From Hormoscilla sp. (GTDB lineage: Bacteria > Cyanobacteriota > Cyanobacteriia > Cyanobacteriales > Desertifilaceae), in contig JBFRWI010000132.1 in NCBI GenBank assembly GCA_051439505.1, positions 18,717 through 82,716 of the forward strand: DNA of 64,000 bases, written 5' to 3'. The notes beneath the pieces are model-generated. The model was not told the origin of the DNA and made no database searches. It worked only from the letters and a program-made list of their open reading frames with translations. Shown here piece by piece: positions 26,880 to 42,849 of the stretch; position 1 is the stretch's first letter, and each line of letters opens with the position of its first letter. The position numbers and the translations under genes were made by a program.

Positions 26880-27539
26880 TTAGCTATTAACTAGCTTTTG
26901 CATTATTTCTGCATGTTCCATCTGGTTTTCTACCATTTCTGAAACTGGCTTCAACCTTTCTTCTAACCCCAAGACAAATTGATTGCCTTCTGCTCCCAAC
27001 GATTCGCAGCTCGTTTGGATGCACTCTAGTTCTTTGCCCGTCAACTGGCTAAAGAATGAACTCAAAACTCCCGCATCCAGAAAACATGCCGGGATATCGC
27101 CTTTAGGAGCATGAGCTGCAAAGGGCGAATTCACAATTTTCACCACCAAAAATCCTTGCTGATGGTAGCTATTGTCCAAATCTATTTTACCCCAACCGTG
27201 GGTTTGCCAGCATTGTTGCAGGCATTGGACAAACTCCACCATTGCCATCTCCGCCAGGGGCTTTTTATAGTAGTCGCTCAGTTCTTCACAGAAGCGAGCG
27301 TAGAAATTTTCCCCCCACCAGCGACCGCAGTTATACAATACTAGACGGGATGCTTGACCTGTTTCCTTGTCCAATCCCGAATATATCGCTTGCAGTAGGG
27401 TTTCTGGCATGGCTATCAGGCGATCGCCCCGGCGATTTTCCAGCAAACCCATTTCCAGTTCGCTGCGCACGTATACGTCGCTCGCAAAGTAATTCCCGGG
27501 TATGCTCTTATCTACGATCAAATCGGCTACCGAAATCAT
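26880..27539 (-). CDS. V4R (4-vinyl reductase) domain protein
   Basis: HGWGKI, C..DAGVLSSFFSQL, CIQTSCESLG. Confidence 0.85.
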   Translation of the reverse strand: MISVADLIVDKSIPGNYFASDVYVRSELEMGLLENRRGDRLIAMPETLLQAIYSGLDKETGQASRLVLYNCGRWWGENFYARFCEELSDYYKKPLAEMAMVEFVQCLQQCWQTHGWGKIDLDNSYHQQGFLVVKIVNSPFAAHAPKGDIPACFLDAGVLSSFFSQLTGKELECIQTSCESLGAEGNQFVLGLEERLKPVSEMVENQMEHAEIMQKLVNS

Positions 27540-27594
27540 TTCCCCAATTCCTTTTTCTCCTGTACCTCAACTTTTCTGGCGTCCCAAATGGCAG

Positions 27595-28056
27595 CTATTC
27601 ATTGAGCAACGTTTCTTTCGCTATTGTTAATGACGGTTTGAGTAAGCCTAGCTGTTCTTTACTCATGACTTGACTTAATTGCTGCCAGAGCAATCTATAC
27701 AGTTTTGTCTCTATCTGTGAACTATTGTAAGTCTCCACAATTACATCTAGCCAACCCAGGAATCTCTCCTTGACAAACGACTCGTCATTCAGCAGCATTG
27801 CCATTCCACAATAGCGCAGCATCAGCATAGCATTTTTTAAGCTCCGTTCTAAATCGCTTGTTTTTTCCTTGGGTAGTTGCGCTTCCAACTGGGAAGCTAC
27901 TGCTTCCATAATCTCTAGTTCCTTGTCTCGCAGATGCTGATATGTTTCCACGCGAGATGGTAATGATTCTACATACTGGCCGATGATTTTCAGTTCTTCG
28001 GGTTTGAGATAACGACTTTCTGCTTCGTTAAAAATTGCTTCAAGTTTTGGATGCAT
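27595..28056 (-). CDS. Phycobiliprotein/globin-like fold protein
   Basis: EAESRYLKPEEL (cf. AD.EGRYLS..EL) and LRYCGMAMLLND; the usual chromophore-binding C-x-R-D motif is not evident. Confidence 0.7.
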   Translation of the reverse strand: MHPKLEAIFNEAESRYLKPEELKIIGQYVESLPSRVETYQHLRDKELEIMEAVASQLEAQLPKEKTSDLERSLKNAMLMLRYCGMAMLLNDESFVKERFLGWLDVIVETYNSSQIETKLYRLLWQQLSQVMSKEQLGLLKPSLTIAKETLLNE

Positions 28057-28080
28057 AAATTTTTACGTGTGACATTCCTT

Positions 28081-28395
28081 TCAGAACAGACTGGAAAAAT
28101 CATCCAGAGTAAATTCATTGGAGCCGGACTCTGCTGCTGGAGCGCTCGTGTCTGGCACTGGCGCTGCTACTTGCTTTCCTTCCCAAGCGAAGCAGCTAAA
28201 AAACTGACGCACGCTCAGCATCTGCGACAGCGGTTCGTTGCTTCCTTGCCAGGCCGCCTGCTTGATCTGCTGTACTAATATCGGCTGTAGATCCCAGTTG
28301 ACCGCTGTAAAAAACTCTCCGACTGACCTTCGCAGCCATTCTTTTGAGATTCCTGCTACCTTACCATTTTGCTCCCCTATTGTCAACTGATTCAT
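28081..28395 (-). CDS. Small hypothetical protein of the V4R cluster
   Basis: Internal repeat SVGEFFTAVNW / SVRQFFSCFAW; ATGA overlap with the upstream V4R gene. Confidence 0.75.
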   Translation of the reverse strand: MNQLTIGEQNGKVAGISKEWLRRSVGEFFTAVNWDLQPILVQQIKQAAWQGSNEPLSQMLSVRQFFSCFAWEGKQVAAPVPDTSAPAAESGSNEFTLDDFSSLF

Positions 28396-29090
28396 AGCAG
28401 TCGTTCTCCTGAACGTAAGCGTTTTTCGATATCCCGAGCTGTGGCCCCCTCATTCAGCCAGAACCCAGCTGCATCAATCCGGTCTTTCCCGCCGATCAGG
28501 AATTTACAGTAAGTTTCGCCCATCGAGTAGCATTGGATTTCAATGCAGCTGAGTTGTTTGCGCACCAGTTCTGTAAAGAAGCCTGCGAATAGACCGGCGT
28601 ATAGGTGGCAAACTGGCTTGCCCACATCTCCCAGGGTGCGGGCCACAGCCGAATCAAACAGGTTGATGAACATAAATCCCTGCTTGCGATCGCCCATATC
28701 CACTTCCCAACGACCCCAACCCTGAGAAGTAAACGGCCACCACCATGTTTCTAGTAAAAACATCAAGTTTGATTGCCGCATATTGCGTTCAAACTCTTTT
28801 TCAAACCACTTTTCAAAGAAGAAAGCATCTTTTTGGCCCCATTCGCAGCCGATCGTATACATAATAGCGGCTGAGGCATCTCCCACTTCCTCCTCTAACC
28901 CTTCTACCAGACCGATAATGAAGTCTTCCGAAGTGAGGACGTTTTGAGCCCCATTCCAGTCTACGATGCTGCCCCGGTCCTGGTCGAACTGAAAAAAATC
29001 ACCAAAGCCATAGTGATTGTGCTTCTTGGGGTACTTCTGCTTCAGTTTGTGCAGTAAGGGATTTGTATCTACCATAGTATGCCTAGCCAT
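28392..29090 (-). CDS. V4R domain protein
   Basis: QGWGRW, PVCHLYAGLFAGFF, CIEIQCYSMGETYCKF. Confidence 0.88.
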   Translation of the reverse strand: MARHTMVDTNPLLHKLKQKYPKKHNHYGFGDFFQFDQDRGSIVDWNGAQNVLTSEDFIIGLVEGLEEEVGDASAAIMYTIGCEWGQKDAFFFEKWFEKEFERNMRQSNLMFLLETWWWPFTSQGWGRWEVDMGDRKQGFMFINLFDSAVARTLGDVGKPVCHLYAGLFAGFFTELVRKQLSCIEIQCYSMGETYCKFLIGGKDRIDAAGFWLNEGATARDIEKRLRSGERLL

Positions 29091-29165
29091 GCGTGGTTAA
29101 TTTGTCAAGGAGCGGAAATATCCAATCGTGCTCTACTATCGCCTAGTTCTCCTAGATGAGCGAAC

Positions 29166-29648
29166 TCAGGCATCCGTTGTCTTAGTCAAGTACGATCCGA
29201 TCTGGAAGTCAGTATTTTCCAACTGCTTTAGGGTCGAGCGTGTGATCAGCTTGCCTGACTCTACCAGCACTTCGCCGGTGACTGGATGAAGCATATTCGT
29301 TTGGGCGCGACGACCAATAAGGGCCTCAATGTCCTGCAAGGATTTCACATACATCCCCGGAGGCAGTTCGACGACGACACCGTCTTGCAAAACTCTCGAT
29401 TGGCAAGCTAGTCGGGAATTGGGCTTACAAGAGGTAATAATCTCTAGAGTACGTTGTTCGCGGCGAGACATGGCCGAAAGGAAATCCATGCCCTGCTTGA
29501 TATACACGTGGCAGGTAGCACACATACCCCGTCCGCCGCATTCCTTGAGCACATCTAATTCCGTATCAATCAGGATAGACAGGAGATTGCCATTGGTTTC
29601 CACCTCAGTGAAGGTGGAGATCGGTTCTAGCTTGACAATTTTGACCAT
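29166..29648 (-). CDS. 2Fe-2S ferredoxin with C-terminal extension (Fed5/Slr0148-like)
   Basis: CGGRGMCATC...RLAC motif; Thr at positions 18 and 72. Confidence 0.88.
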   Translation of the reverse strand: MVKIVKLEPISTFTEVETNGNLLSILIDTELDVLKECGGRGMCATCHVYIKQGMDFLSAMSRREQRTLEIITSCKPNSRLACQSRVLQDGVVVELPPGMYVKSLQDIEALIGRRAQTNMLHPVTGEVLVESGKLITRSTLKQLENTDFQIGSYLTKTTDA

Positions 29649-29682
29649 TTATACCTTCTCCGTTTGCGCGTTGGCCTATTGA

Positions 29683-30567
29683 CTAGGGTAACAACAGTTC
29701 TTTTTGTTGGGGGTTGAGGGCTTTTTGCTCAACTAGGGCGGGGAAGTCGCGGATCACCTTGGCACATCTGTTGATGAATGCTGCTACCCAGGACTGAATC
29801 GAGGAGATTTCCTGCTCTGTGACTTCCCCAGACTCTGACTGGGAGGACTCACCATTGAAGCTAATTTCCGCTTTGCGGTTGACTTGGAAGTGGTTGAGCC
29901 ACTCAATATTCTGCGGGCGAGAAGTCTTCCAGTAATTGCTAATCACAGCTACTCCTAGGTATTGCGTGGTGAACTCAGACAGCTGATTGAGGGCTGCCAG
30001 AATTTCTTTGAGGGTAACTTGGTGCGTCCCATTCTTGGCGTCCGGTTGCGGCGAGGCGGCGTCATGGAAGCCATTGCGCGAACCGGTAGATGTGCCTGAT
30101 GCTGTTTTTGCTACGGGAGCGGGGACAGCTGCGGTTTGCCCGGGCTTGGTCCCGTCGGAGGCAGCAGGCTTCCAGTACTCTTGACCCGACAGGGTGATAT
30201 TACCAGCTAGCAGGCGAAATGTGGCTACACCCGTGGAGAGGTCGGCGCTCAGTGCTGCTTTAAGTTTTTGCAGAGCCGGTAAATAATCGGAGTAGACTAG
30301 ACCGCTGCTAGTCAGCACCAGCAGGATCATGTCGGAAGCTAGTTTGTAAATATATACTTGGTGTGCTGCGAATTGAAATTCAAAAGACTCAAAGCTCTCA
30401 GGCGTCGTCTCCACTACCTGGCGGATGCCCTGAGCTAGGGCTTCTTTTTGCTGAAAGTTCAGGGCGCTATCCACGCCACAAAAGTAGGGGCGCGATCGCC
30501 TATCCATTAAGGCCACACCCGCAATTCCTGGTAAATTCAGAAAGTCCTTGACTACCTCCCGGTTCAT
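29683..30567 (-). CDS. Hypothetical protein, N-terminal roadblock/longin-like domain plus linker and helical domain
   Basis: LPGIAGVALMD and VYIYKL..DMILLVLT strand pattern; Pro/Ala/Thr-rich linker; fold call is inference. Confidence 0.65.
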   Translation of the reverse strand: MNREVVKDFLNLPGIAGVALMDRRSRPYFCGVDSALNFQQKEALAQGIRQVVETTPESFESFEFQFAAHQVYIYKLASDMILLVLTSSGLVYSDYLPALQKLKAALSADLSTGVATFRLLAGNITLSGQEYWKPAASDGTKPGQTAAVPAPVAKTASGTSTGSRNGFHDAASPQPDAKNGTHQVTLKEILAALNQLSEFTTQYLGVAVISNYWKTSRPQNIEWLNHFQVNRKAEISFNGESSQSESGEVTEQEISSIQSWVAAFINRCAKVIRDFPALVEQKALNPQQKELLLP

Positions 30568-32492: not shown

Positions 32493-33827
32493 ATGAGCAA
32501 ATTGAATCAACTAACTCCCAATTCAACCTTGGGTGATTTACCACTGCATGATTTCCAGGTTTCTCCGAAAACTAGAGGCAAGGTTCTCGCTAATGTTTTT
32601 GCCTTTCGACCGGAACTGCCTGGGGCGATCGTGGCCGATCGCTCTGGCATGATTGGCATGATTTCTCGGCGTAGGTTTAACGATTGGATGAGTTCTCCCT
32701 ATGGCATAGATGTTTTTCTCGAAAGTCCGATAGAAATATTTTCTCAGATGATTACTCAGAAGGTAAAATTGTTGCAATTGCCCGATACAGAAAAGGTAGA
32801 AATAGCTGTAAAACAGGCACTCAGTCGGGCCGCAGAGGACATGTATGAGCCGATCGTTATTGTGTATAAAGACTTAAGCTTGCCAGATTTTCAAGCCTAC
32901 TTTTTACTTGATGTTGTCACCCTCATTCTCGCTCAGAACCAAATTTTTACTGTTTTCAAGAAACAAGTCGAACAAGATATTTTTCAATCAAGCTGTCAAT
33001 TAAAATTAGTAAAAGAGCACCAAAAAGTAGAGGAATACGATCGAATATTAAAGGAGCAAAAGGCGGCGATTGAAGAACGCAACCAGCTCTTAGAAATCCA
33101 GCGGATTGAACTGGCAAAGAAATCCCAAGAGATTGCTCAACTCAATCAAGGATTTCAGCGAATTGGGCAATTGATGTCTCAAAAAGCGACAAAAGCGTTT
33201 CGAGCTACTTTTTCAGGAGTAAATGTGATTTGTCGCCAGACTAACCAGATTGTGGATATCGGTCGGTTATTAAGTGAAGAATTGGAGCGAATTCAGGACA
33301 CTTCCCAACTGATTAAAAAAGTGTCTCAGCAAGTCCGTCATTTAGCAATGAAGGCGGCAATTGTAGCCAATAATGCTGGCACGGAATTAAATAGTTTTAG
33401 CCAGATAACTACTGAAATTGGGAAATTGGTTAGTCAGACTTTTGAAGCTGGGCGTCAGATGGATCGTTCTGCCGATCGCTTCATGCAGAAAATCCAAGAA
33501 TTTACGGAGTCTGCCCATCGGGGAATGAGGGTGACAAAGTCTCTGATCCAAGAGATCCAACAGGCGGAGATGGCATTAGCGGAGTTGGAGTCATTGGTGC
33601 AACAGCACGACAGTAATTTTAGTCCTGAAAAGGGATCGGAAACTATGACCGCTGCTAAGGACCAAGAGGATCTAGAAGAGATAGAAAAGGGATCGCTGGC
33701 CCTAGTGGAAAAGTTGGCATTAGCAGAGGCGACGCTGTCTGATTTGCAGGAAATGACGCGGTATAAAGATTCTGCCATGATCCTGCGCAAGATCAGGCGA
33801 GCTTTGCATAAATACAAAACTTATTGA
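32493..33827 (+). CDS. Soluble signalling protein: CBS-like pair, coiled coil and degenerate MCP signalling domain
   Basis: LPGAIV...GMISRRRF...YEPIVI N-domain; VSQQVRHLAMKAAIVANNAG..FSQITTEIGKL resembles the MCP hairpin tip. Confidence 0.7.
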   Translation: MSKLNQLTPNSTLGDLPLHDFQVSPKTRGKVLANVFAFRPELPGAIVADRSGMIGMISRRRFNDWMSSPYGIDVFLESPIEIFSQMITQKVKLLQLPDTEKVEIAVKQALSRAAEDMYEPIVIVYKDLSLPDFQAYFLLDVVTLILAQNQIFTVFKKQVEQDIFQSSCQLKLVKEHQKVEEYDRILKEQKAAIEERNQLLEIQRIELAKKSQEIAQLNQGFQRIGQLMSQKATKAFRATFSGVNVICRQTNQIVDIGRLLSEELERIQDTSQLIKKVSQQVRHLAMKAAIVANNAGTELNSFSQITTEIGKLVSQTFEAGRQMDRSADRFMQKIQEFTESAHRGMRVTKSLIQEIQQAEMALAELESLVQQHDSNFSPEKGSETMTAAKDQEDLEEIEKGSLALVEKLALAEATLSDLQEMTRYKDSAMILRKIRRALHKYKTY

Positions 33828-33879
33828 ATGTTGGCTAGGCAGAATTGTGCAACCCAAAAATAGAATTAGATTAGATTTC

Positions 33880-33990
33880 GGCGTTGCACAACGACACCGA
33901 TGATGAGGGCTGCTAATTGCTTATACTTCGTCCTCTGCCAGAGCGCAAATTTTAACAATTGGCTGCTATCATCGGTAAAAATGTGCAACA
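33880..33990. repeat. Degenerate inverted-repeat element GGCGTTGCACA...ACCGATGA / TCATCGGTAAAAATGTGCAAC
   Basis: Same end sequence occurs singly at 24145-24172; no clear TSD. Confidence 0.5.
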
Positions 33991-34025
33991 ATCGACTTTC
34001 ACTATTGTTCAAGCAGAAATTAAGG

Positions 34026-35507
34026 ATGAAAGATAGAGGATATAATAATTTGTTAGGATGGGGCAAGTATCGTAAAATTCTGATATCTGTGGCTCTGTTT
34101 CTGACTTTTGACCTCGGGGTTTTGATCCCGAATTTGCTCGTCTCTTCCCAACTAAAACAAGATGCGATCGGCATCAACCTCTCAGGTCGTCAGCGCATGC
34201 TTTCCCAACGCACGGTCAAAGCATTGCTGCTACTGCAACTTGCCCATCAGGCTAATAAAGATATTACTGTGGCTCAACAAGAACTGGCGATCGCCTACAA
34301 GTTGTTTGACCAAACTCTGACTGCTTTCAATTCCGGTGGCATGGTAACGGGCGGTGACGGACAAGCTGTTTTTCTCGCATCTGTGGAGAGTGACAAGGCC
34401 AAGAGTCTCGTCAAACAGGCCCTGGAGATTTGGCTCCCTTATCAGCAGAAATTAATCCCTATTTTAACTGCGGAAAATACTATTGACCCAGAAAAGCTGG
34501 CTATTGCGATCGCCTATGGCCAACAGCAGAACCGGCAACTATTGTCCTTAATGAATAGCTTGACATTTGAATTAGAACAGATTGCCAATCACAAAGCTAC
34601 CAATTTGCAGCTATTTCAAACTATTGGGATACTTCTGGCATTGTTAAACTTTTTTATTCTCTTGTATCACACCTTAATAAAATTAAAAGCTAGCGATGCC
34701 GAAATCGCCCATGCCCATGAGAAAATATCGGCCCTGAACCAGCAATTAACAGCGGAAAATCTCCGCCTAAATGCGGAGATAGACGTGACGCGGAAACTGC
34801 AACAGATGATCCTACCTAAAGATCGGGAACTGAGTAAAATTAGAGATTTAGATATTGCTGGCTTTATGGAACCAGCGGCGGAGGTAGGTGGAGACTACTA
34901 CGACGTGCTTCACAGCAATGGTCGAGTAAAAATAGGCATCGGCGATGTTACAGGACATGGGTTAGAATCAGGAGTATTGATGATTATGGTGCAGACGGCA
35001 GTGCGCACTCTTCTGGCCAATAATGAAACGGACCCGGTGAAGTTTTTGAATGCTCTCAACAGCACGATTTACAATAACGTGCAGCGGATGAATTCTGAGA
35101 AAAACCTCACCCTCTGCTTACTAGATTACTCTGGTGGAGTTATTAGTTTGAGCGGACAGCATGAGGAGATGATTGTGGTGCGCTATAGCGGTGTGGTAGA
35201 ATGTATTGATACGATCGACCTCGGTTTCCCGATCGGGCTGGAGTCCGACATTACCGATTTCGTCGCTTCCACGAGGGTAGAGTTGCAGCCAGGGGACGTG
35301 GTGGTGCTGTATACTGATGGGATTACCGAAGCGGAAAATCCGCAAGGAGAGTTCTACGGACTAGAGAGGCTGTGTGAAGTAGTCAAGCAAAACTGGCAAG
35401 GTGATGCTGCTGACATCAGGCAGGCGGCGATCGCGGACCTGCGGCAGCATATTGGGGAGCAAAAGCTGTATGATGACATTACTTTGCTAGTCATCAAGCA
35501 AAAATAG
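34026..35507 (+). CDS. Membrane SpoIIE/PP2C phosphatase with periplasmic PilJ/NarX-like sensor domain
   Basis: TM1, INLSGRQRMLSQR (P-box/N-box-like), TM2, coiled coil, then VGGDYYD, GDVTGHG, LYTDGITE, DDITL; ATG at 34026 preferred because the upstream frame is repeat-derived. Confidence 0.88.
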   Translation: MKDRGYNNLLGWGKYRKILISVALFLTFDLGVLIPNLLVSSQLKQDAIGINLSGRQRMLSQRTVKALLLLQLAHQANKDITVAQQELAIAYKLFDQTLTAFNSGGMVTGGDGQAVFLASVESDKAKSLVKQALEIWLPYQQKLIPILTAENTIDPEKLAIAIAYGQQQNRQLLSLMNSLTFELEQIANHKATNLQLFQTIGILLALLNFFILLYHTLIKLKASDAEIAHAHEKISALNQQLTAENLRLNAEIDVTRKLQQMILPKDRELSKIRDLDIAGFMEPAAEVGGDYYDVLHSNGRVKIGIGDVTGHGLESGVLMIMVQTAVRTLLANNETDPVKFLNALNSTIYNNVQRMNSEKNLTLCLLDYSGGVISLSGQHEEMIVVRYSGVVECIDTIDLGFPIGLESDITDFVASTRVELQPGDVVVLYTDGITEAENPQGEFYGLERLCEVVKQNWQGDAADIRQAAIADLRQHIGEQKLYDDITLLVIKQK

Positions 35508-35554
35508 CAGGCTCTCAGTTTCAACTCGCTAATAGGTATGAACGCTCTTCTGAT

Positions 35555-38050
35555 GTGATTGTGACAGATATTCTCTGGATCCTAGCTTGTTCGGGCTTGG
35601 TCTTCCTGATGCAACCGGGATTTATGTGCCTGGAGTCAGGGCTAACCAGGTCGAAAAACAGCATCAATGTTGCTATCAAAAATATGGCCGACTTTGGCGT
35701 TTCCGCCGCCTTATTTTGGGTGTTTGGTTATGCCCTGATGTTTGGACCCTCCCTCTGGGGGTGGATAGGATCGGCAGGATTTGTCTTACATATAGAGTCT
35801 AACTCAGAACTAGCAGCCTTCTTTTTATTCCAGGCGATGTTTTGCGGCACCGCTACCACTATAGTATCTGGCGCTGTGGCAGAGCGGATGAAGTTTGCTG
35901 CCTATCTGCTCGTCGCTGGTTTAGTTTCCAGTCTGATTTATCCCATATTCGGTCATTGGGTATGGAACGGGGCCCTGTCGGGCAGCTTGACTGGCTGGCT
36001 GGGAAAAATGGGCTTTGTAGATTTTGCTGGCTCCACCGTGGTTCATAGCGTTGGCGCATGGGTTTCCTTAGCTGCTTTGCTGGTGGTCGGACCCCGCGTG
36101 GGCCGCTTTACCTACTCGGGGCGATCGCGCAAGATCCACGGTTCTAACCTGCAGCTTGCTGTCTTGGGGGCAATGCTGCTGTGGATCGGTTGGATGGGGT
36201 TTAACGGTGGCAGCACCCTGGCCTTAAACGAGCAGGTAACCAGCATTATCGTCAATACGATCCTGGCTGGGACAGCTGGCATGATTACTGCCGCCGCGAT
36301 CGGTTGGCATCAGCGCCAAATACCGGAAGTAGAAATGCTGATTAATGGGTCGATCTCGGGGCTAGTATCGATCACCGCTTCCTGTCATGCCGTGACCACC
36401 CCACTGGCGGTGATTATTGGAGCCATTGGCAGCGCGGTGATGCTGTTGGTGGCCTATTGGTTACAGCGCTATCGGATTGATGATGCTGTCGATGCCGTGG
36501 CGGTTCACGGGGGAGCCGGTGTTTGGGGCACCTTGGCAGTCGCCTTGTTTGGTCAGCCGGAGTTACTCAACACCGGTCTCTCTCGGTTGGCCCAGCTAGG
36601 GGTGCAGCTGTTGGGAATTTTAGTTTGTTCCTGTTGGGCATTTTTATTGACATATTGCCTATTGTCTGTTATTGATAAATTCTTAGCTCTGCGGGTTTCT
36701 CCCCAAGAAGAAAAGATCGGTCTGAATATATCAGAGCATCGGGTTAAAGCGGAAATTTACGATCTTCTCCAAGTCATGGAAGACCATGTAAAAACGCAAG
36801 ATTTAAGCTTGCGGGTGCCCGTGGAACCCTTTACTGAGGTAGGGCAAATTGCTTCTCGTTATAACCAGGTGATGGATGCCCTACAGTCAGCATTTACGGA
36901 AACACAAGCTGTTGTCCAAATGGCAACAGATGCGATTATTACCTTCAGCAAACCCTCAATCAAAATTATCACAGCTAACCCCAGTGCCTCCAGAATATTT
37001 GGGTATCATCTCAGTCGTTTAGTGGGGATGGATATCTCAGGATTGCTGATTTTGCCAACTGGGATTACGCCAAACAAACTGCTGCAATATTTATTGACAC
37101 CAGGACGTCATGAAATAGCCGGGCGTCGTGCCACAGGTGAGCATTTTCCTCTGGAAGCTACCGTAACGGAAGTTTTGTTAGGCGATCGCTCTTTCTACAC
37201 GGGCACATTTCGCGACATCAGCGATCGCAAACTGGTAGAAGCGGAACTGGCCAGGGCACACGAAGAAATCTCTGCCCTCAGCCAGCGTCTGCAAGTGGAA
37301 AATATCCGCCTGACTGCCGAACTAGATATCACGCGCCAACTGCAACATATGCTATTACCCAAGGATTCCGAACTGGAACAAATTCCCGGGTTAGATATTG
37401 CTGGCTTTATGGAACCAGCTAATGAGGTAGGGGGCGACTACTACGACGTATTGCAGCACAATGGACGAGTCAAAATTGCCATTGGCGATGTCACGGGACA
37501 TGGACTAGAGTCAGGGGTATTGATGATTATGGTGCAAACTGCTGTGCGGACTCTGCTGGAAAACAATGAAACCGATCCCGTGAAATTCTTGTCTACCCTC
37601 AACCACACGATTTACGACAACGTCCAGCGAATTAATTCCGATAAAAACCTTACCCTCTGCTTGCTAGACTATCAGTCTGGCAGACTGCATTTGAGCGGAC
37701 AGCATGAAGCGCTGATTGTGGTGCGATCGGGCGAAAAGGTAGAACTGATTGATACAATAGATTTAGGCTTTCCCATTGGACTGGAAGCAGACATTACTGA
37801 TTTCATCGCCTCTGCTGAGGTGCAGTTACACCCAGGAAATGTGGTGGTGCTGTATACTGATGGGATTACCGAAGCAGAAGATATTCATAAAGTCCAATAT
37901 GGACTAGAGAGGTTATGTGAAGTGGTCCAGCAAAACTGGCTGCGATCGGCTGCCAAAATCAGGCAAGCGGTTATTGATGACGTGCGATCGCATATCGGCC
38001 AGCAAAAGGTATATGATGATATTACCTTGGTAGTAATTAAGCAAAAGTGA
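35555..38050 (+). CDS. Ammonium transporter (Amt)-PAS-SpoIIE/PP2C phosphatase fusion
   Basis: LESGLTRSKN, SGAVAER, DFAGSTVVH, WMGFNGGS, IDDAVDAVAVHG; PAS (ANPSASRIFGY...FPLEATVTE...FRDISDRK); complete PP2C motifs. Confidence 0.92.
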   Translation: MIVTDILWILACSGLVFLMQPGFMCLESGLTRSKNSINVAIKNMADFGVSAALFWVFGYALMFGPSLWGWIGSAGFVLHIESNSELAAFFLFQAMFCGTATTIVSGAVAERMKFAAYLLVAGLVSSLIYPIFGHWVWNGALSGSLTGWLGKMGFVDFAGSTVVHSVGAWVSLAALLVVGPRVGRFTYSGRSRKIHGSNLQLAVLGAMLLWIGWMGFNGGSTLALNEQVTSIIVNTILAGTAGMITAAAIGWHQRQIPEVEMLINGSISGLVSITASCHAVTTPLAVIIGAIGSAVMLLVAYWLQRYRIDDAVDAVAVHGGAGVWGTLAVALFGQPELLNTGLSRLAQLGVQLLGILVCSCWAFLLTYCLLSVIDKFLALRVSPQEEKIGLNISEHRVKAEIYDLLQVMEDHVKTQDLSLRVPVEPFTEVGQIASRYNQVMDALQSAFTETQAVVQMATDAIITFSKPSIKIITANPSASRIFGYHLSRLVGMDISGLLILPTGITPNKLLQYLLTPGRHEIAGRRATGEHFPLEATVTEVLLGDRSFYTGTFRDISDRKLVEAELARAHEEISALSQRLQVENIRLTAELDITRQLQHMLLPKDSELEQIPGLDIAGFMEPANEVGGDYYDVLQHNGRVKIAIGDVTGHGLESGVLMIMVQTAVRTLLENNETDPVKFLSTLNHTIYDNVQRINSDKNLTLCLLDYQSGRLHLSGQHEALIVVRSGEKVELIDTIDLGFPIGLEADITDFIASAEVQLHPGNVVVLYTDGITEAEDIHKVQYGLERLCEVVQQNWLRSAAKIRQAVIDDVRSHIGQQKVYDDITLVVIKQK

Positions 38051-38267
38051 CCCGATCGACTGCTATGATATAAATTTGATTTGCATAACCGGGGCCAAGC
38101 CCCACGCGACTGCTGCCGACTTCAACTGACAAAAAATCAGGGCGAATTTATCACCCTCTTGATGGGTAATTTGACAATAGTGCTAGCTCTCAGTTATAAT
38201 AAAAAGTAGGGTGGGCACCGCCCACCAGCACCGCCCACCAGTAGCTATACTCATCGCATCATCAACA

Positions 38268-38735
38268 ATGAACAATCTCGCGAACAGTCCCGATATCGCC
38301 CATATATCGAAACTCAAGCAATTGTCGATCGGGCTTCCGGAGAAAATCCCATACATGAGGATGCTAGTATTGTTTGGTTCGAGGGCCAGGGGCGATACCC
38401 ATGCCAAAAGTGATTGGGACTTTGCCGCAGTTTACGATGAAGAAATTCGTTATCTTCAGATTAAAGATAATGGTTTTCGCTGGTTTGAAGTGCCGCATTT
38501 GCTGGGGGAAGCTTTTGCACTCAATCCAGATATGATTGATGTCGTAGATTTAAATAAATGCTCGTCACTGATGGCCCATTATGTAGCACGTGATAGTATC
38601 CTATTATATGAAAAGGATGCGGGTCTCTTTGATGGTTTTCGGTCAAGGGCCTTAAAAAGTGATGCCGAACTGAACGCCATTCGCAAGGCCCTTAGAGAAC
38701 AAGTTGAACAAAATTTACAAAGGTGGGGTGTATGA
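38268..38735 (+). CDS. Minimal nucleotidyltransferase antitoxin (MntA-like)
   Basis: LFGSRARGDTHAKSDWD (GSX10DXD), IDVVDL; ATG at 38268. Confidence 0.88.
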   Translation: MNNLANSPDIAHISKLKQLSIGLPEKIPYMRMLVLFGSRARGDTHAKSDWDFAAVYDEEIRYLQIKDNGFRWFEVPHLLGEAFALNPDMIDVVDLNKCSSLMAHYVARDSILLYEKDAGLFDGFRSRALKSDAELNAIRKALREQVEQNLQRWGV

Positions 38736-39163
38736 CTGAAATTGATCCGGATATTGTTATAAATAAGCTAGTTTTTTTAGATAAATATCTCAAAAAATTA
38801 GCTGACTTTGAGGATTTCAATCTGTCGGAGTATCTCAAGGATTTCAATCAGCAGTTAGTTGTAGAAAGACTGCTACAGTTAACCATTCAAGTGGCGCTAG
38901 ATATCAATAGATATTTACTCAAGCAACTTGAAATAGAGCAGCCCGAGAGTAATTTTGCAACATTTATAGAGGTTGGCAACTGTGGAATCATTACACCGGA
39001 GTTAGCAAAAGTATTAGCCCCTTCGGGAAGTTTACGTAATCGACTGGTTCATCTTTACGAAGAAATAGATCCGATGCGAGTACATACCGATATTAATATA
39101 GCGTTGCAATATTATCCAATTTATCAAAGACAGGTGACAATTTACTTAGATTCGTTAGAATAG
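38732..39163 (+). CDS. HEPN/DUF86 RNase toxin (HepT-like)
   Basis: LRNRLVHLYEEID (RX4HXY); ATGA overlap with the MNT gene. Confidence 0.88.
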   Translation: MTEIDPDIVINKLVFLDKYLKKLADFEDFNLSEYLKDFNQQLVVERLLQLTIQVALDINRYLLKQLEIEQPESNFATFIEVGNCGIITPELAKVLAPSGSLRNRLVHLYEEIDPMRVHTDINIALQYYPIYQRQVTIYLDSLE

Positions 39164-39285: not shown

Positions 39286-40788
39286 TTAAAAGATTCCTCG
39301 GGCAGTATTCTCCACAAGATAGCCCTTCGATGCAATGAGATTAAGCCCCATCAAATCCCCTGGCTGAAGCTTTGGCAACTGCTGCACGAGGTCGAGAAAA
39401 TTATCCTGTTCTTGACTGTCGATGATTCCTTCAGTCAAGGTCTTGAACTTGTTGATATAATCAGGTCGCTGAAACGGTCGCGCACCATAGGAATGTGCAT
39501 TTGCTACCGCTAGTTGGTCTTCCAGCTTAGAACCATCAGTAAATAAGACCTCAACCCGTGCCCCAAAGGCTCGTTCTTTGGGATCCCGACTGTGATAGCG
39601 TCGCGTCCATTCGGGATCTTCCAGCGTGCGGACCTTCTGCCAAAGGCGAACCGTATCTTCCCGCTGGGCCCGTTCGGGGGTATAAGAATCAAAGTGATGC
39701 CAGCGTCCGTCTTGCAGGGCCACCGCAAAGATGTACATAATCGAATGATCTAGGGTTTCCCGGGTGGCCTTGGGGTTCATCTTCTGGGGATCCCCCGAAC
39801 CCGTACCGATGACATAATGGGTTTGATGGCTGCCGTGAATCACTATTTCCTTAATCTTCTCGAAGTCGTCAATTTTTTCTCCTAGGCGAAATGCTAAATC
39901 GATCAGTCCTTGGGCTTGATACTCCGCAGAATGTTCCTTGGTGTAAGATTCCAGAATTGCTCGCTTGGGTTCCCCAGGTTCCGGGAGTGGCACCTCATAT
40001 AGCGCATCTGGTCCGCTTAAAATCCAAGCAATAATACTGTCTTCCCCTTCGTAAATTGGTGATGGGGAACCCTCTCCCCGCATGCAGCGATCGACCGCTT
40101 CCAGCCCATTCTTGCCAGCATAGGCGGGGGCATAGGCTTTCCAGCTAGATATGTCCGCCTTGCGAGATTGTCGGGTGGTAATTGTCGTGTGGGCCGCCTG
40201 CTGAACGGCTTGGTAGATCGTTTCGGTATCCAGTCCTAACAGGGTGCCGATCGCCGCAGCTGCCGATGGTCCCAAATGAGCAATATGGTCGATCTTGTGC
40301 TCGTGAAGACAAATTCCTTTCACCAGATCGATCTGAATTTCATAGCCCGTAGCAATACCGCGAATCAGATCGGCTCCACTACAACCGCATTGTTGAGCTG
40401 CTGCGATAATGGAGGGAATATTATCCCCCGGATGGGAGTAATCAGCAGCATGGAAAGTGTCGTGAAAGTCCAGTTCCCGTACAGCCACACTATTGGCCCA
40501 GGCTGCCCATTCTGCACATACTTTTGTTTCTGGGGGAACGCCAAATATTGTCGCACCACCACTGCGTAAATGAGCTAAGGCTTGAGCCCGGGCCGTTTGG
40601 ACTGAATGATAGTTCAATGCCGCACATGCTGCTGCGGCATTGTCGATGATGCGGTTGATAATCATTTCCACAACGTCGGAGTCAACCGCCACGGTATCTG
40701 ATGCCACGGCGGCAATTTTCCAGGCCAACTGCTCTTCCCGGGGCAGGTATTCTTTAGAGGGATAGGTTCGGACTTGATTAATTTTCAT
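39286..40788 (-). CDS. prpD: MmgE/PrpD-family protein (2-methylcitrate dehydratase-like)
   Basis: [44 protein letters not shown]. Confidence 0.85.
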
Positions 40789-40968
40789 GCTTTTTTCGGC
40801 TGTGGAAGTCTGAGAATTGAAAATTGAAAATTGAAAATTGAGAATGGAGAATTGAGCTATTTTCCTTTCGACCTTCGCCCGACCTTAGCAATTATTCATA
40901 TTTATTGCTAAGATGAAAAGTGAGATTATCCCATCCTCATCTTAATCCTCACATTCTTATTCAACGGG

Positions 40969-41721
40969 TTAGTATCGCAATGCACCGCCGTTGATGTGAA
41001 GAGTTTGACCCGTAATGAAACTTGCTGCATCCGAGGCTAAAAAGACGCACATCTTGGCGATCTCTTCGGGTAGTCCCAAGCGTCCTTGGGGGACCATGGC
41101 AATTCGTTTTACCGTTTTTTCATCTGTGGAGGTTCCGAGGGTCGTATCTATGAGTCCTGGAACAATATGATTGACTGTAATTTTTTGTTTGGCTAATTCC
41201 ACCGCTAAAGCTCTCGTCAGGCCGAGTGCTCCCATTTTCGAGGCGCAGACGTGAGACCATTCGGTACGACCGATGAAGGCATTGAGTCCCGATACATTAA
41301 TAATCCGACCCCAGCCAGTAGCTATCATACTGGGCACGACGGCTCGACAACAGAAAAAGGGACCGTCCAAGTTGCCCGCCAGGACGCTGCGCCACTCCTC
41401 TGTCGTCATCTCGGTTATCGGGCTCGATCGCCGCAGTCCGGTATTATTCACCAGAATATCAATTCGACCAAACTCTTCCAATACCCGTGCTACCATAGCC
41501 TGAACTTGGCTTTCATCACCGACATCAGCCAGTAGGGGGATGGCCTTTACTCCTAATGCTTCCACCTCCTTTGCCGTAGATTCCGCTTCTTCGGCACTGG
41601 TGCGGGCATTGACCACCACATCAGCACCTTGCCCTGCCAGTTCCAGGGCGATCGCGCGACCGATATTCCGGCTGGAGCCAGTCACTAGCGCTACTTTCCC
41701 CTGTAAATCTCTTTGAGTCAT
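40969..41721 (-). CDS. Short-chain dehydrogenase/reductase, atypical catalytic motif
   Basis: TGSSRNIG, DILVNN, ITGQTLHING; YxxxK position reads VCASK; ATG at 41721. Confidence 0.85.
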   Translation of the reverse strand: MTQRDLQGKVALVTGSSRNIGRAIALELAGQGADVVVNARTSAEEAESTAKEVEALGVKAIPLLADVGDESQVQAMVARVLEEFGRIDILVNNTGLRRSSPITEMTTEEWRSVLAGNLDGPFFCCRAVVPSMIATGWGRIINVSGLNAFIGRTEWSHVCASKMGALGLTRALAVELAKQKITVNHIVPGLIDTTLGTSTDEKTVKRIAMVPQGRLGLPEEIAKMCVFLASDAASFITGQTLHINGGALRY

Positions 41722-41856
41722 ACTTAAATCCCTAAAACTTTTCCTTTTACTGTCGCTGATTTTTTCCCTTCTGACAACTGACAACTATCAACTGACAACT
41801 GGCAACTTTGAATGGTGGGCGGTGCCCACCCTACCAATCCCCAATCGAAGCCCTCC

Positions 41857-42849
41857 TCAGCTATCTTTAATGGGGGAGATGGCGAGATAACCCTGTCTCA
41901 AGTATTTCTTAATTTTTTTATCTGCTGCCTTAAAAGCTGGCATCCCTTTGTACTCACCTGCCACTACATGAGCATTTGTCTCCGCCGTTCCCAGAAATGA
42001 CTCCATTGTTGCCAGGTATTCCTCTATTTCTGAGAGTCTCGGTGAATAGACCTTATTTATGAATTCCAACTGTTTTGGGTTGATGGACTTTTTCCCCGTG
42101 AACCCAAATATATTACAGGAAAGCAGGGCCTCGTTGCGAGCCTTCTCTGGATCGTTAAATTTTGCCGAAACGCTGTCAAATAGATCCAGCCCGTATTTCT
42201 TACCTGTCATAGTAATGATACCTAGAATTTGCTGAAACAGGGGACTTTCACAAGTAGAGATTCGCTCCACACCCAGATCTGTAGACATATCCCCTATGCT
42301 AAAACCCAGGCCATCCCGTCCTCTTCTGAGAACCTTGGCAATCTCCTCTATTGCCTGTAAACCGGCTATCGTTTCTATAGAAACGATATAATTCTTATCT
42401 TCTCCAATCGTTTCCATGAGTCGTGCAATCTCATGACCTGATTCCCCCTTAGCGATGGTAACTGCATCAAAAGGAAACTGGGCGATCGCCTTAATATCCT
42501 CTTCTAGCTCCTGAGGGTCTCCAGAATTTATTCTCACTATATACTCTACCGGTCCTGGTTTCGGCGGGATTTGGGAAATGCTCTCCCGCGCGACTTTTTT
42601 GAGATCGTAAGGGATGCTGTCCTCTAAATCCCAGATAATCCCATCTGCTGGGATTTCATTGTTTGCCACTTTTTCTCGGAATCGCGGCTTATTCAGAGGC
42701 ACGAACAGATGAGACCGTCGTTTGAACTCAGTGCAGAACTCCCTGTCCGAGCAGTAGCCCTCTATATACCCATATAGCTTTTCCGATATTTCCAAGGGCC
42801 TCCTCTGCTCTGCCTCTGCCAGTACACAATCAAGCTCTAATTTTCCCAT
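41857..42849 (-). CDS. HpcH/HpaI aldolase-citrate lyase beta (CitE)-family protein
   Basis: RSHLFVP, DLEDS, VRIN, SIET, GFTGKKSINPKQ. Confidence 0.8.
   Translation of the reverse strand: MGKLELDCVLAEAEQRRPLEISEKLYGYIEGYCSDREFCTEFKRRSHLFVPLNKPRFREKVANNEIPADGIIWDLEDSIPYDLKKVARESISQIPPKPGPVEYIVRINSGDPQELEEDIKAIAQFPFDAVTIAKGESGHEIARLMETIGEDKNYIVSIETIAGLQAIEEIAKVLRRGRDGLGFSIGDMSTDLGVERISTCESPLFQQILGIITMTGKKYGLDLFDSVSAKFNDPEKARNEALLSCNIFGFTGKKSINPKQLEFINKVYSPRLSEIEEYLATMESFLGTAETNAHVVAGEYKGMPAFKAADKKIKKYLRQGYLAISPIKDS

Follow-up and report, generated by a model that had tools for sequence, protein, structure and literature searches.

The stretch analyzed here, a window of 64,000 nucleotides from contig JBFRWI010000132.1 (C132) of the Hormoscilla sp. 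assembly GCA_051439505.1, contains two adjacent genes, genes 2 and 3, whose products end in PP2C phosphatase domains. In gene 2 the phosphatase is preceded by a PilJ domain, and in gene 3 by a whole Amt domain and a PAS domain. We propose that the two products are probably sensor phosphatases for nitrate and ammonium, respectively, and that both act on one Slr1659-type switch controlling a CHASE2-PAS adenylate cyclase. The proposal draws on the domain anatomy of the two genes, their site residues and PP2C metal ligands, the co-occurrence and neighborhoods of the phosphatase clade, and a relic that links gene 3 to slr1658 and slr1659.

The genome assembly is cyanobacterial, 6.5 Mb in size and 93% complete. 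Four sequencing runs hold at least a third of the stretch, all of them marine sediment metagenomes from one study. Features given by window coordinates are on the + strand unless otherwise stated. Gene 2 (34026..35507) encodes 493 residues from its likely start. The open frame begins at 33900; because ten homologues begin 13–18 residues ahead of the same KYR motif, the start is most likely ATG 34026, i.e., 198 bp from gene 1 rather than 72 bp. Gene 3 (35555..38050) encodes 831 residues; the corresponding database protein (P0121) starts 6 bp later and has 829. The gene 2 stop (35507) and the gene 3 GTG (35555) are separated by 47 bp. An earlier note, made from the letters of this DNA, described two co-directional genes 47 bp apart with similar phosphatase motifs and different inputs, a two-transmembrane periplasmic domain and a whole Amt domain plus PAS. 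The reading frames, their orientation and the quoted motifs are all present, and Pfam and NCBIfam scans assign PilJ and SpoIIE to gene 2 and Ammonium_transp, PAS_9 and SpoIIE to gene 3. As for the wider reading in that note, the sensor types, the PP2C ligands and a shared phospho-substrate hold up, but a conserved two-gene unit, the membership of gene 1 and a circuit of the RsbU/RsbV/anti-sigma type do not.

The PilJ match of gene 2 (E 5.6e-10) is above the cut-off, and hydropathy places the domain between two hydrophobic helixes, the first and second transmembrane segments (34077..34133 and 34611..34667). The motif INLSGRQRMLSQ (34173..34208) agrees with the N-box defined for McpN (PMC6381276) at 11 of 12 positions, with Ser replacing Ala. 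G-x-x-R, which holds nitrate in NarQ and McpN (PMC8199190), is kept as G54 and R57, the equivalents of G47/R50 in NarQ and G58/R61 in McpN. The nitrate P-box/N-box first claimed for this segment thus stands as regards G-x-x-R and 11 of the N-box positions, but not as the strict published box. A search of the PDB with the single PilJ-region sequence gave chance matches only; a profile of six family sequences matched McpN and nothing else (E 1e-4). Given the AlphaFold model of the sensor (predicted local distance difference test score, pLDDT, 89), Foldseek ranks NarQ and McpN highest (probability 1.0, E 3e-3 to 4e-3, template-modeling score up to 0.62). A box relaxed to Ala or Ser is found in 119 of the 120 homologues listed of the 366 found. 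nrtAB-like or nirB genes lie within 8 kb of a gene of this PilJ subfamily at 19 of 80 genome loci and at 6 of the best 80 metagenome loci; of the 19, nirB is present at six and the same Ser variant at six. The second transmembrane segment leads directly, with no HAMP, into a predicted signaling helix, and the PilJ-to-PP2C spacing after it is identical in all 17 PilJ-PP2C proteins measured. Motif, predicted fold and the neighborhoods of relatives support the nitrate-type sensor that had been suggested. Its ligand is likely nitrate; nitrite and sulfite, which NarX and NarQ also bind (PMC6381276), are also possible.

The genome has two further PilJ proteins with the strict N-box. One (C226:20702-22156, L006) is a methyl-accepting chemotaxis protein (MCP) whose gene belongs to a Wsp-like chemosensory cluster, with the narB remnant some 11 kb away, and the other (C10:1767-4556, L007) is a hybrid histidine kinase. 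At proteobacterial loci, including L062, L068, L084, L093 and L106, the same PilJ subfamily is fused to a CheA-like Hpt-HATPase module followed by a receiver and/or CheX gene. Some of these loci are inside nrt/nirB clusters, and an undescribed nitrate-sensing phosphorelay is possible there.

Gene 3 matches the whole Ammonium_transp profile (E 1.6e-122; Amt domain, 35573..36745). Its best PDB match is Sd-Amt1 (E 4e-123), and the alignment continues through the predicted HAMP of Sd-Amt1 (Sd 404–449), defining a HAMP-like linker (36752..36886) that has no Pfam HAMP match. A PAS domain follows (36911..37249; TIGR00229, E 1e-11). The ammonium-receptor signature QX6EX15NX2D(F/T)X54-60TX2(S/T) (PMC11152129) lies at residues 20–105 of gene 3; the N1/N2 residues are Q20, E27, K42, N43, D46, T102, S105 and Y117. 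By alignment offsets, all 17 residues marked in Sd-Amt1 are identical in gene 3, among them the Trp/Ser pair, the Phe gate, the twin His, the switch Lys/Tyr and the exit Asn (N264). The ordinary Amt of the genome lacks the signature and departs from the marked residues at Q22, D48 and Y119. Genome-wide the signature occurs twice, in gene 3 and in an Amt-kinase on C63. Amt-PP2C relatives occur in Coleofasciculus, Roseofilum, Baaleninema, Spirulina and Beggiatoa. The strict signature is present in 47 of 66 Amt-PP2C homologues of at least 700 residues, and the Q-E-KN-D core in 66 of 66 with an intact N-terminus (cluster members included). The PAS-to-PP2C linker has a fixed length in 35 of 36 proteins; fixed linkers, here as in the PilJ-PP2C proteins, are what is expected of a signaling helix. 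The proposed receptor-type Amt is supported, all 17 site residues being kept, three of which the ordinary Amt lacks, and ammonium is the predicted ligand of its pocket. The second receptor-type Amt (C63:3656-6403, L002), whose fusion partners are PAS and a histidine kinase, shares 66% identity with gene 3 across 600 residues.

The phosphatase domains (gene 2, 34917..35498, SpoIIE E 1.8e-41; gene 3, 37460..38041) are both above the SpoIIE cut-off, and both retain all four metal-binding Asp motifs (D290, D307, D431 and D483/D484 in gene 2; D628, D645, D769 and D821/D822 in gene 3). The domains share 76% identity, and in this the close similarity originally noticed is correct. The likeness is nevertheless a property of a clade, not peculiar to the pair, because three other paralogues in the genome, a REC-PP2C, an ETR1-like-PP2C and a Cache-HAMP-kinase-REC-PP2C, are 64–74% identical to the same domains; five inputs to the switch are therefore expected. 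The remaining SpoIIE proteins of the genome have 22–29% identity to the clade. A tree was built from 33 of the 93 phosphatase domains, and most of it lacks resolution, 19 of its 30 inner branches being open. It requires five label changes for the PilJ and for the Amt inputs alike, with a single origin still possible at this resolution, and the domains of genes 2 and 3 are not supported sisters in it, so that a recent tandem duplication is neither shown nor excluded. The ETR1-like phosphatase (C2:27999-29336, L004) has an ethylene-receptor-like N-terminal domain (ETR1_N, E 3e-40).

The evidence on the substrate comes from elsewhere in this genome and from its relatives. There is one slr1658-slr1659 pair in the genome, on contig C53, with scores against cut-offs of 297/200, 264/100 and 170.5/100 (NCBIfam NF052618, NF047703 and NF047705). 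The PP2C clade is present in 24 of 41 related genomes, and slr1659 scores above its cut-off in 23 of the 41, all of them among those 24. The 24th (G002) holds an slr1659 fragment, and three clade-negative genomes hold frameshifted slr1659 remnants. Both slr1658 and slr1659 are found at 7 of 13 other Amt-PP2C loci (kin included, six of the 13 being from one genus and five from one family) and at 10 of 11 other PilJ-PP2C loci (nine of the 11 from named Calothrix/Rivularia or a similar metagenome-assembled genome). In three same-genus genomes (G002, G003 and G004), what is left of the phosphatase region connects the LysR gene of the window with slr1659 remnants and with the flanking genes that slr1659 has on C53; in a fourth (G001) the same connection runs from ndhD/ndhF, which lie further upstream. 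Finally, 21 bp upstream of slr1658 on C53 is a 66-bp relic, which matches the 3′ end of gene 3 (37946..38011) with 92% identity. Over 62 bases the relic has 57 matches to gene 3, 39–44 to the other four paralogues, and at most 37 to anything else. Because of the 24-genome co-occurrence, the joint decay in G001–G004 and G029, and the relic, slr1659 is taken to be the partner. The Slr1659-like protein has a Ser63, invariant in 14 of 14 aligned sequences, within LEFLNSSG, which corresponds to LLYLNT68SS, the phospho-site of SiaC (10.1101/674879). The shared phospho-substrate postulated at the outset can thus be named: by prediction, it is likely an Slr1659-type (SiaC-like) protein with an Slr1658-type kinase, rather than an RsbV/anti-sigma pair.

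The alternative first suggested, an RsbU-type circuit with anti-sigma partners, found no linked partners at the locus. No STAS match is present on contig C132, which shows only a sub-cut-off HATPase_c_2 in a 484-residue frame, and no linked anti-anti-sigma or anti-sigma kinase genes were found among the related loci read. The genomic partners fall outside the anti-sigma/anti-anti-sigma families (ant_ant_sig, 25.6 bits against a cut-off of 53.45).

Two observations concern the same genes elsewhere. In the four same-genus genomes (L043, L246, L247 and L248), the signaling module has been lost stepwise by deletion, with many broken genes and insertion elements nearby. In Rivularia/Calothrix-type loci (L056, L057, L058, L059, L061, L065 and L069), a fused Slr1658-Slr1659 protein of 320–343 residues directly follows PilJ-PP2C, besides a separate pair upstream.

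An output for the switch is suggested by a helix with the consensus KxDLEILLETxxxH, found in 19 of the 41 genomes, all inside the slr1659 set. It is often encoded beside slr1659 and often present in two copies; the SiaD stalk bears two SiaC-binding motifs (PMC8457831). In this genome the helix was found solely in a CHASE2-PAS adenylate cyclase, encoded on C26. A 2:2 complex prediction of the Slr1659-like protein with the cyclase helix scored 0.54, against 0.02 for the best control, with runs agreeing in at least 96% of contacts and a partner pLDDT of at least 72. Among 157 solved pairs 116 reach the mark applied, as do 2 of 215 mismatched pairs; those that do so at 0.60 or below, however, comprise only 18 solved pairs and both mismatches. 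The cyclase is the likely output, with weak support from the complex prediction.

The proposed mechanism is as follows. Nitrate from outside would be bound at the dimer axis of the gene 2 PilJ domain, and ammonium in the Amt pocket of gene 3. Phosphatase activity would be regulated through the signaling helix of fixed length. The Slr1658-type kinase would phosphorylate the Slr1659-type protein, presumably at Ser63, and genes 2 and 3 would both dephosphorylate it. The unphosphorylated protein may then bind the cyclase helix, much as SiaC binds the SiaD stalk. Both ligands would push the same way, making an OR gate for combined nitrogen outside, and the REC, ETR1-like and Cache-kinase-REC paralogues would feed the same switch. 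As to sign, our guess is that ligand activates, by the parallel with Sd-Amt1, in which ammonium activates.

Several observations weigh against this scheme. As regards ligands, gene 2 does not match the strict N-box [IVL][ND]xAGxQRML[ST]Q, having Ser at the Ala position, and the strict box occurs in 48 of the 120 listed PilJ homologues. No Foldseek row reaches E 0.001, and PcaY bundles, four-helix structures of other ligand specificity, rank just behind. The nrt/nirB neighborhoods are all at non-cyanobacterial loci with other outputs, none of them PilJ-PP2C, and two of the 19 supplied queries. NrtA-like proteins, moreover, also bind cyanate or bicarbonate. On the ammonium side, proven transporters, plant Amts among them, can likewise bear the N1/N2 signature (PMC11152129), and because of these the receptor role of gene 3 stays a prediction. 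As regards the circuit, slr1658/slr1659 and the cyclase are on other contigs than genes 2 and 3, and besides the Slr1659-like protein the genome encodes six small proteins of STAS type, together with five RsbW-like kinases. Kinship among the counted loci means that the co-occurrence counts are not independent, and memory of the SiaC-SiaD likeness may contribute to the complex prediction. As regards physiology, nirA consists of residues 57–215 only, narB of frameshifted C-terminal pieces (C226:32912-37056, L233), and no nifH was found in the assembly.

Whether the two genes form a unit is a separate question. Full-length Amt-PAS-PP2C proteins were found in 8 of 40 relatives and in 7 of 400 genomes of the phylum (two candidates scored per genome), and the PilJ subfamily, with this genome set aside, in 8 of 400 genomes of the phylum and in 10 of 400 from the order. 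An order-wide search of 401 genomes gave no new PilJ-PP2C, its two new matches being a 505-residue protein without a PP2C match and a 181-residue fragment. A first metagenome scan gave no match; among the best 80 loci of a second, PilJ-PP2C occurred once, at a locus repeating L059, and an Amt neighbor nowhere. Of 17 genomes searched for receptor-type Amts, only one, which carries a PilJ kinase, has two. Contigs from two other studies bridge the gene 2-3 junction at about 92% identity, i.e., in close strains. Two proteins, P0003 and P0130, whose searched regions are 64% and 67% identical to gene 2 and gene 3, respectively, come from contigs of matching length (45,345 bases and, via cluster members, 53,394), which suggests a second organism with both on one contig, adjacency aside. 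The pairing is thus rare, recurring in close strains and probably in one distant organism. A contig from an RNA library spans the junction, with no cover of gene 1 in that run; such contigs do not establish a transcript and DNA may be present, and the contig was not counted for co-transcription. A promoter scan was uninformative (11 sites versus 9.5 expected).

These data bear on an alternative in which the phosphatases are of opposite sign, or form mixed dimers, so that the switch reads the nitrate-to-ammonium ratio as a proxy for depth and redox in a mat or sediment, the tandem having been selected for that purpose. The genes are adjacent and co-directional without a strong terminator between them, the junction recurs in the close strains and the two proteins probably share a contig in the distant organism. 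Nitrate sensors are also retained despite the loss of nirA and narB, in a genome that holds three N-box proteins and two receptor-type Amt fusions. Against this, the partner gene is absent from all 13 other Amt-PP2C loci and all 11 other PilJ-PP2C loci (0/24), and a receptor-type Amt from all 11 other PilJ-PP2C genomes. These counts, with five paralogues feeding the same clade, also speak against the conserved two-input unit envisaged at first. We regard the ratio-reading switch as unlikely.

A further alternative is that the input domains do something else. That is, PilJ may bind another oxyanion (nitrite, sulfite or bicarbonate) or nothing, or Amt may mainly transport, and the pair would have arisen incidentally, as domains were shuffled within a phosphatase family that was expanding. 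The Ser variant, the nitrite and sulfite binding of NarX/NarQ and the transport by signature-bearing plant Amts would all fit, as would the five label changes on the poorly resolved tree and the decay of the module in all four same-genus genomes. However, G-x-x-R and the rest of the box persist throughout nearly all listed homologues, and nrt/nirB clusters are where the Ser variant itself lies. The genome also keeps both genes intact alongside a separate ordinary Amt, and the linkers are fixed in length; we consider this alternative improbable. Least probable is that the sensors are real and the substrate is a conventional RsbV/SpoIIAA-type anti-anti-sigma protein, presumably of the Slr1856/Slr1859/Ssr1600 type: the additional STAS-type proteins and RsbW-like kinases, the separation of slr1658/slr1659 from this locus and the promiscuity of which PP2C domains are capable would allow it, but the STAS/RsbW genes on C57, C100 and C165 adjoin their own, unrelated PP2Cs (22–29% identity), and co-occurrence, joint decay and the relic all point to slr1659.

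Returning to the sensing of nitrate and ammonium through an Slr1659-type switch, the nitrogen physiology of the strain constrains what it may serve. nirA has a full-length frame in three of four same-genus genomes. In this assembly no match was found to the nitrate permease that follows nirA in G004, nor to NrtA. The loss of nirA/narB looks real, recent and strain-specific, because a contig of run X2 spans the break without differences and a related strain in X6 is longer by 3,813 bases at the same place. The broken genes speak against the system serving, in this strain, to select nitrate or ammonium for assimilation; behavior or a surface lifestyle is the more likely output. The genome also encodes PII and, on C126, what we take to be a urea ATP-binding-cassette-like cluster. 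Four perfect NtcA boxes (GTA-N8-TAC) occur in the window, none of them in 31.9–38.3 kb, where there are two one-mismatch sites only. A broader suggestion, which we put forward tentatively and with considerable doubt, is that some marine filamentous cyanobacteria have a dedicated sense of outside nitrogen apart from NtcA/PII, in which a periplasmic receptor for nitrate and a receptor for ammonium would govern how far one Slr1659 switch is phosphorylated and so pass the nitrate/ammonium balance on to cyclic AMP, and which would be kept as a positional cue after nitrate assimilation is lost.

The system resembles SiaABCD of Pseudomonas aeruginosa (10.1101/674879; PMC8457831) in having a membrane PP2C, a small putative kinase and a putative phosphoprotein that is STAS-like and has an N-[ST]-S site; a cyclase bound at a helical stalk would be a further parallel. 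SiaA is the best full phosphatase-family match in NCBIfam, yet the Sia profiles are far under their cut-offs (SiaA, 58 and 52 of 700 bits; SiaB, 23 of 85; SiaC, 19.7 of 24.5). Unlike SiaABCD, the partners belong to the Slr1658/Slr1659 families, there are five phosphatase inputs instead of one, the sensors are probably for nitrogen, and the predicted cyclase is an adenylate rather than a diguanylate cyclase. By this comparison the system would work like SiaABC(D) without being a member.

The input domains have precedents of their own. Gene 3 shares with Sd-Amt1 (Amt-HAMP-diguanylate cyclase) and Ks-Amt5 (Amt-histidine kinase) (PMC11152129; PMC5764959) a whole Amt with the N1/N2 signature, the exit-blocking Asn, a HAMP-like linker and a fused enzyme. 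It differs from them in its output, a PP2C behind PAS, and in its cyanobacterial host; the searched text of the two papers mentions neither SpoIIE/PP2C fusions nor cyanobacteria. Gene 2 shares with McpN and NarX/NarQ (PMC6381276; PMC8199190) a two-transmembrane periplasmic four-helix PilJ sensor, G-x-x-R right after the first transmembrane segment, and, probably, the fold. In contrast to these, gene 2 has the Ala-to-Ser change, an extra β-hairpin insertion, no HAMP, and a Ser/Thr phosphatase output. Among N-box carriers the searched text of the McpN paper (PMC6381276) counts regulators, kinases, chemoreceptors and diguanylate cyclases, and no phosphatases. The RsbU/RsbV/RsbW and SpoIIE/SpoIIAA/SpoIIAB switches have in common with the pair the PPM/PP2C catalytic domain (Pfam SpoIIE) and the preceding signaling helix; here, unlike in those switches, the partners are not of the anti-sigma/anti-anti-sigma family and no sigma factor is linked.

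For the partners themselves, the C53 pair passes the family cut-offs for Slr1658/Slr1659 of Synechocystis PCC 6803. The mutant phenotype of slr1658 concerns recovery from iron limitation (as cited in PMC7555055); beyond that phenotype, the literature searched on Slr1658/Slr1659 gave no kinase activity, phospho-site, phosphatase or nitrogen input. No report of a nitrate- or ammonium-sensing PP2C in cyanobacteria was found either, in a search of openly available papers. Tremblay and Hallenbeck (2009) are said to survey Amt fusions, and Amt-PP2C proteins may be among those listed. Cyanobacterial nitrogen control is usually described as internal sensing of 2-oxoglutarate via NtcA and PII. If the proposal is right, outside nitrogen would in addition be sensed directly, nitrate by a periplasmic receptor and ammonium by one in the membrane. 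In the portions of the literature examined, neither sensor class has a characterized phosphatase output. The pair would also supply two cheap, defined ligands for the Slr1658/Slr1659 switch, which is present in 23 of 41 related genomes, and the path from ligand through phospho-switch to cyclase would become testable in vitro.

Gene 1 (32493..33827, 444 residues) was first described as a CBS-like, degenerate-MCP gene just upstream of the pair. It has a CBS-like cyanobacterial N-terminal module, a coiled coil and a degenerate MCP-like hairpin; MCPsignal is below its cut-off (25.7 versus 34.6 bits), and the CBS-like part is indicated by leads only (one of four aligned members at E 0.004; Atlas 0.85). 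The N-module (32493..33002) is also present on three histidine kinases and one GGDEF protein of the genome (C24, L235, and C161, L236; three in tandem on C24). In other genomes it is found on PP2Cs; four loci of one family carry it as a fusion with a clade PP2C, located upstream of Amt-PP2C. Orthologues of gene 1 occur in 12 other genomes, two of which (G030 and G031) lack the phosphatase clade, and at none of eight orthologue loci read is there a PP2C, Amt or PilJ within about 1.5 kb. Gene 1 was therefore rejected as a third component and is probably not a dedicated part of the system.

Other features of the window are as follows. Directly after gene 3, where slr1658 follows in other genomes, is a nucleotidyltransferase-HEPN (MNT-HepT-like) toxin-antitoxin pair (38211..39163). 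On the − strand, a row of genes at 39286..42849 presumably encodes MmgE/PrpD-like, short-chain dehydrogenase-like and citrate-lyase-beta-like proteins. Also on the − strand, at 26880..30567, are small genes that we take to resemble V4R-domain, globin/phycobiliprotein-like and 2Fe-2S proteins, beside a Ser/Thr kinase; this cluster is conserved in the same-genus genome G002.

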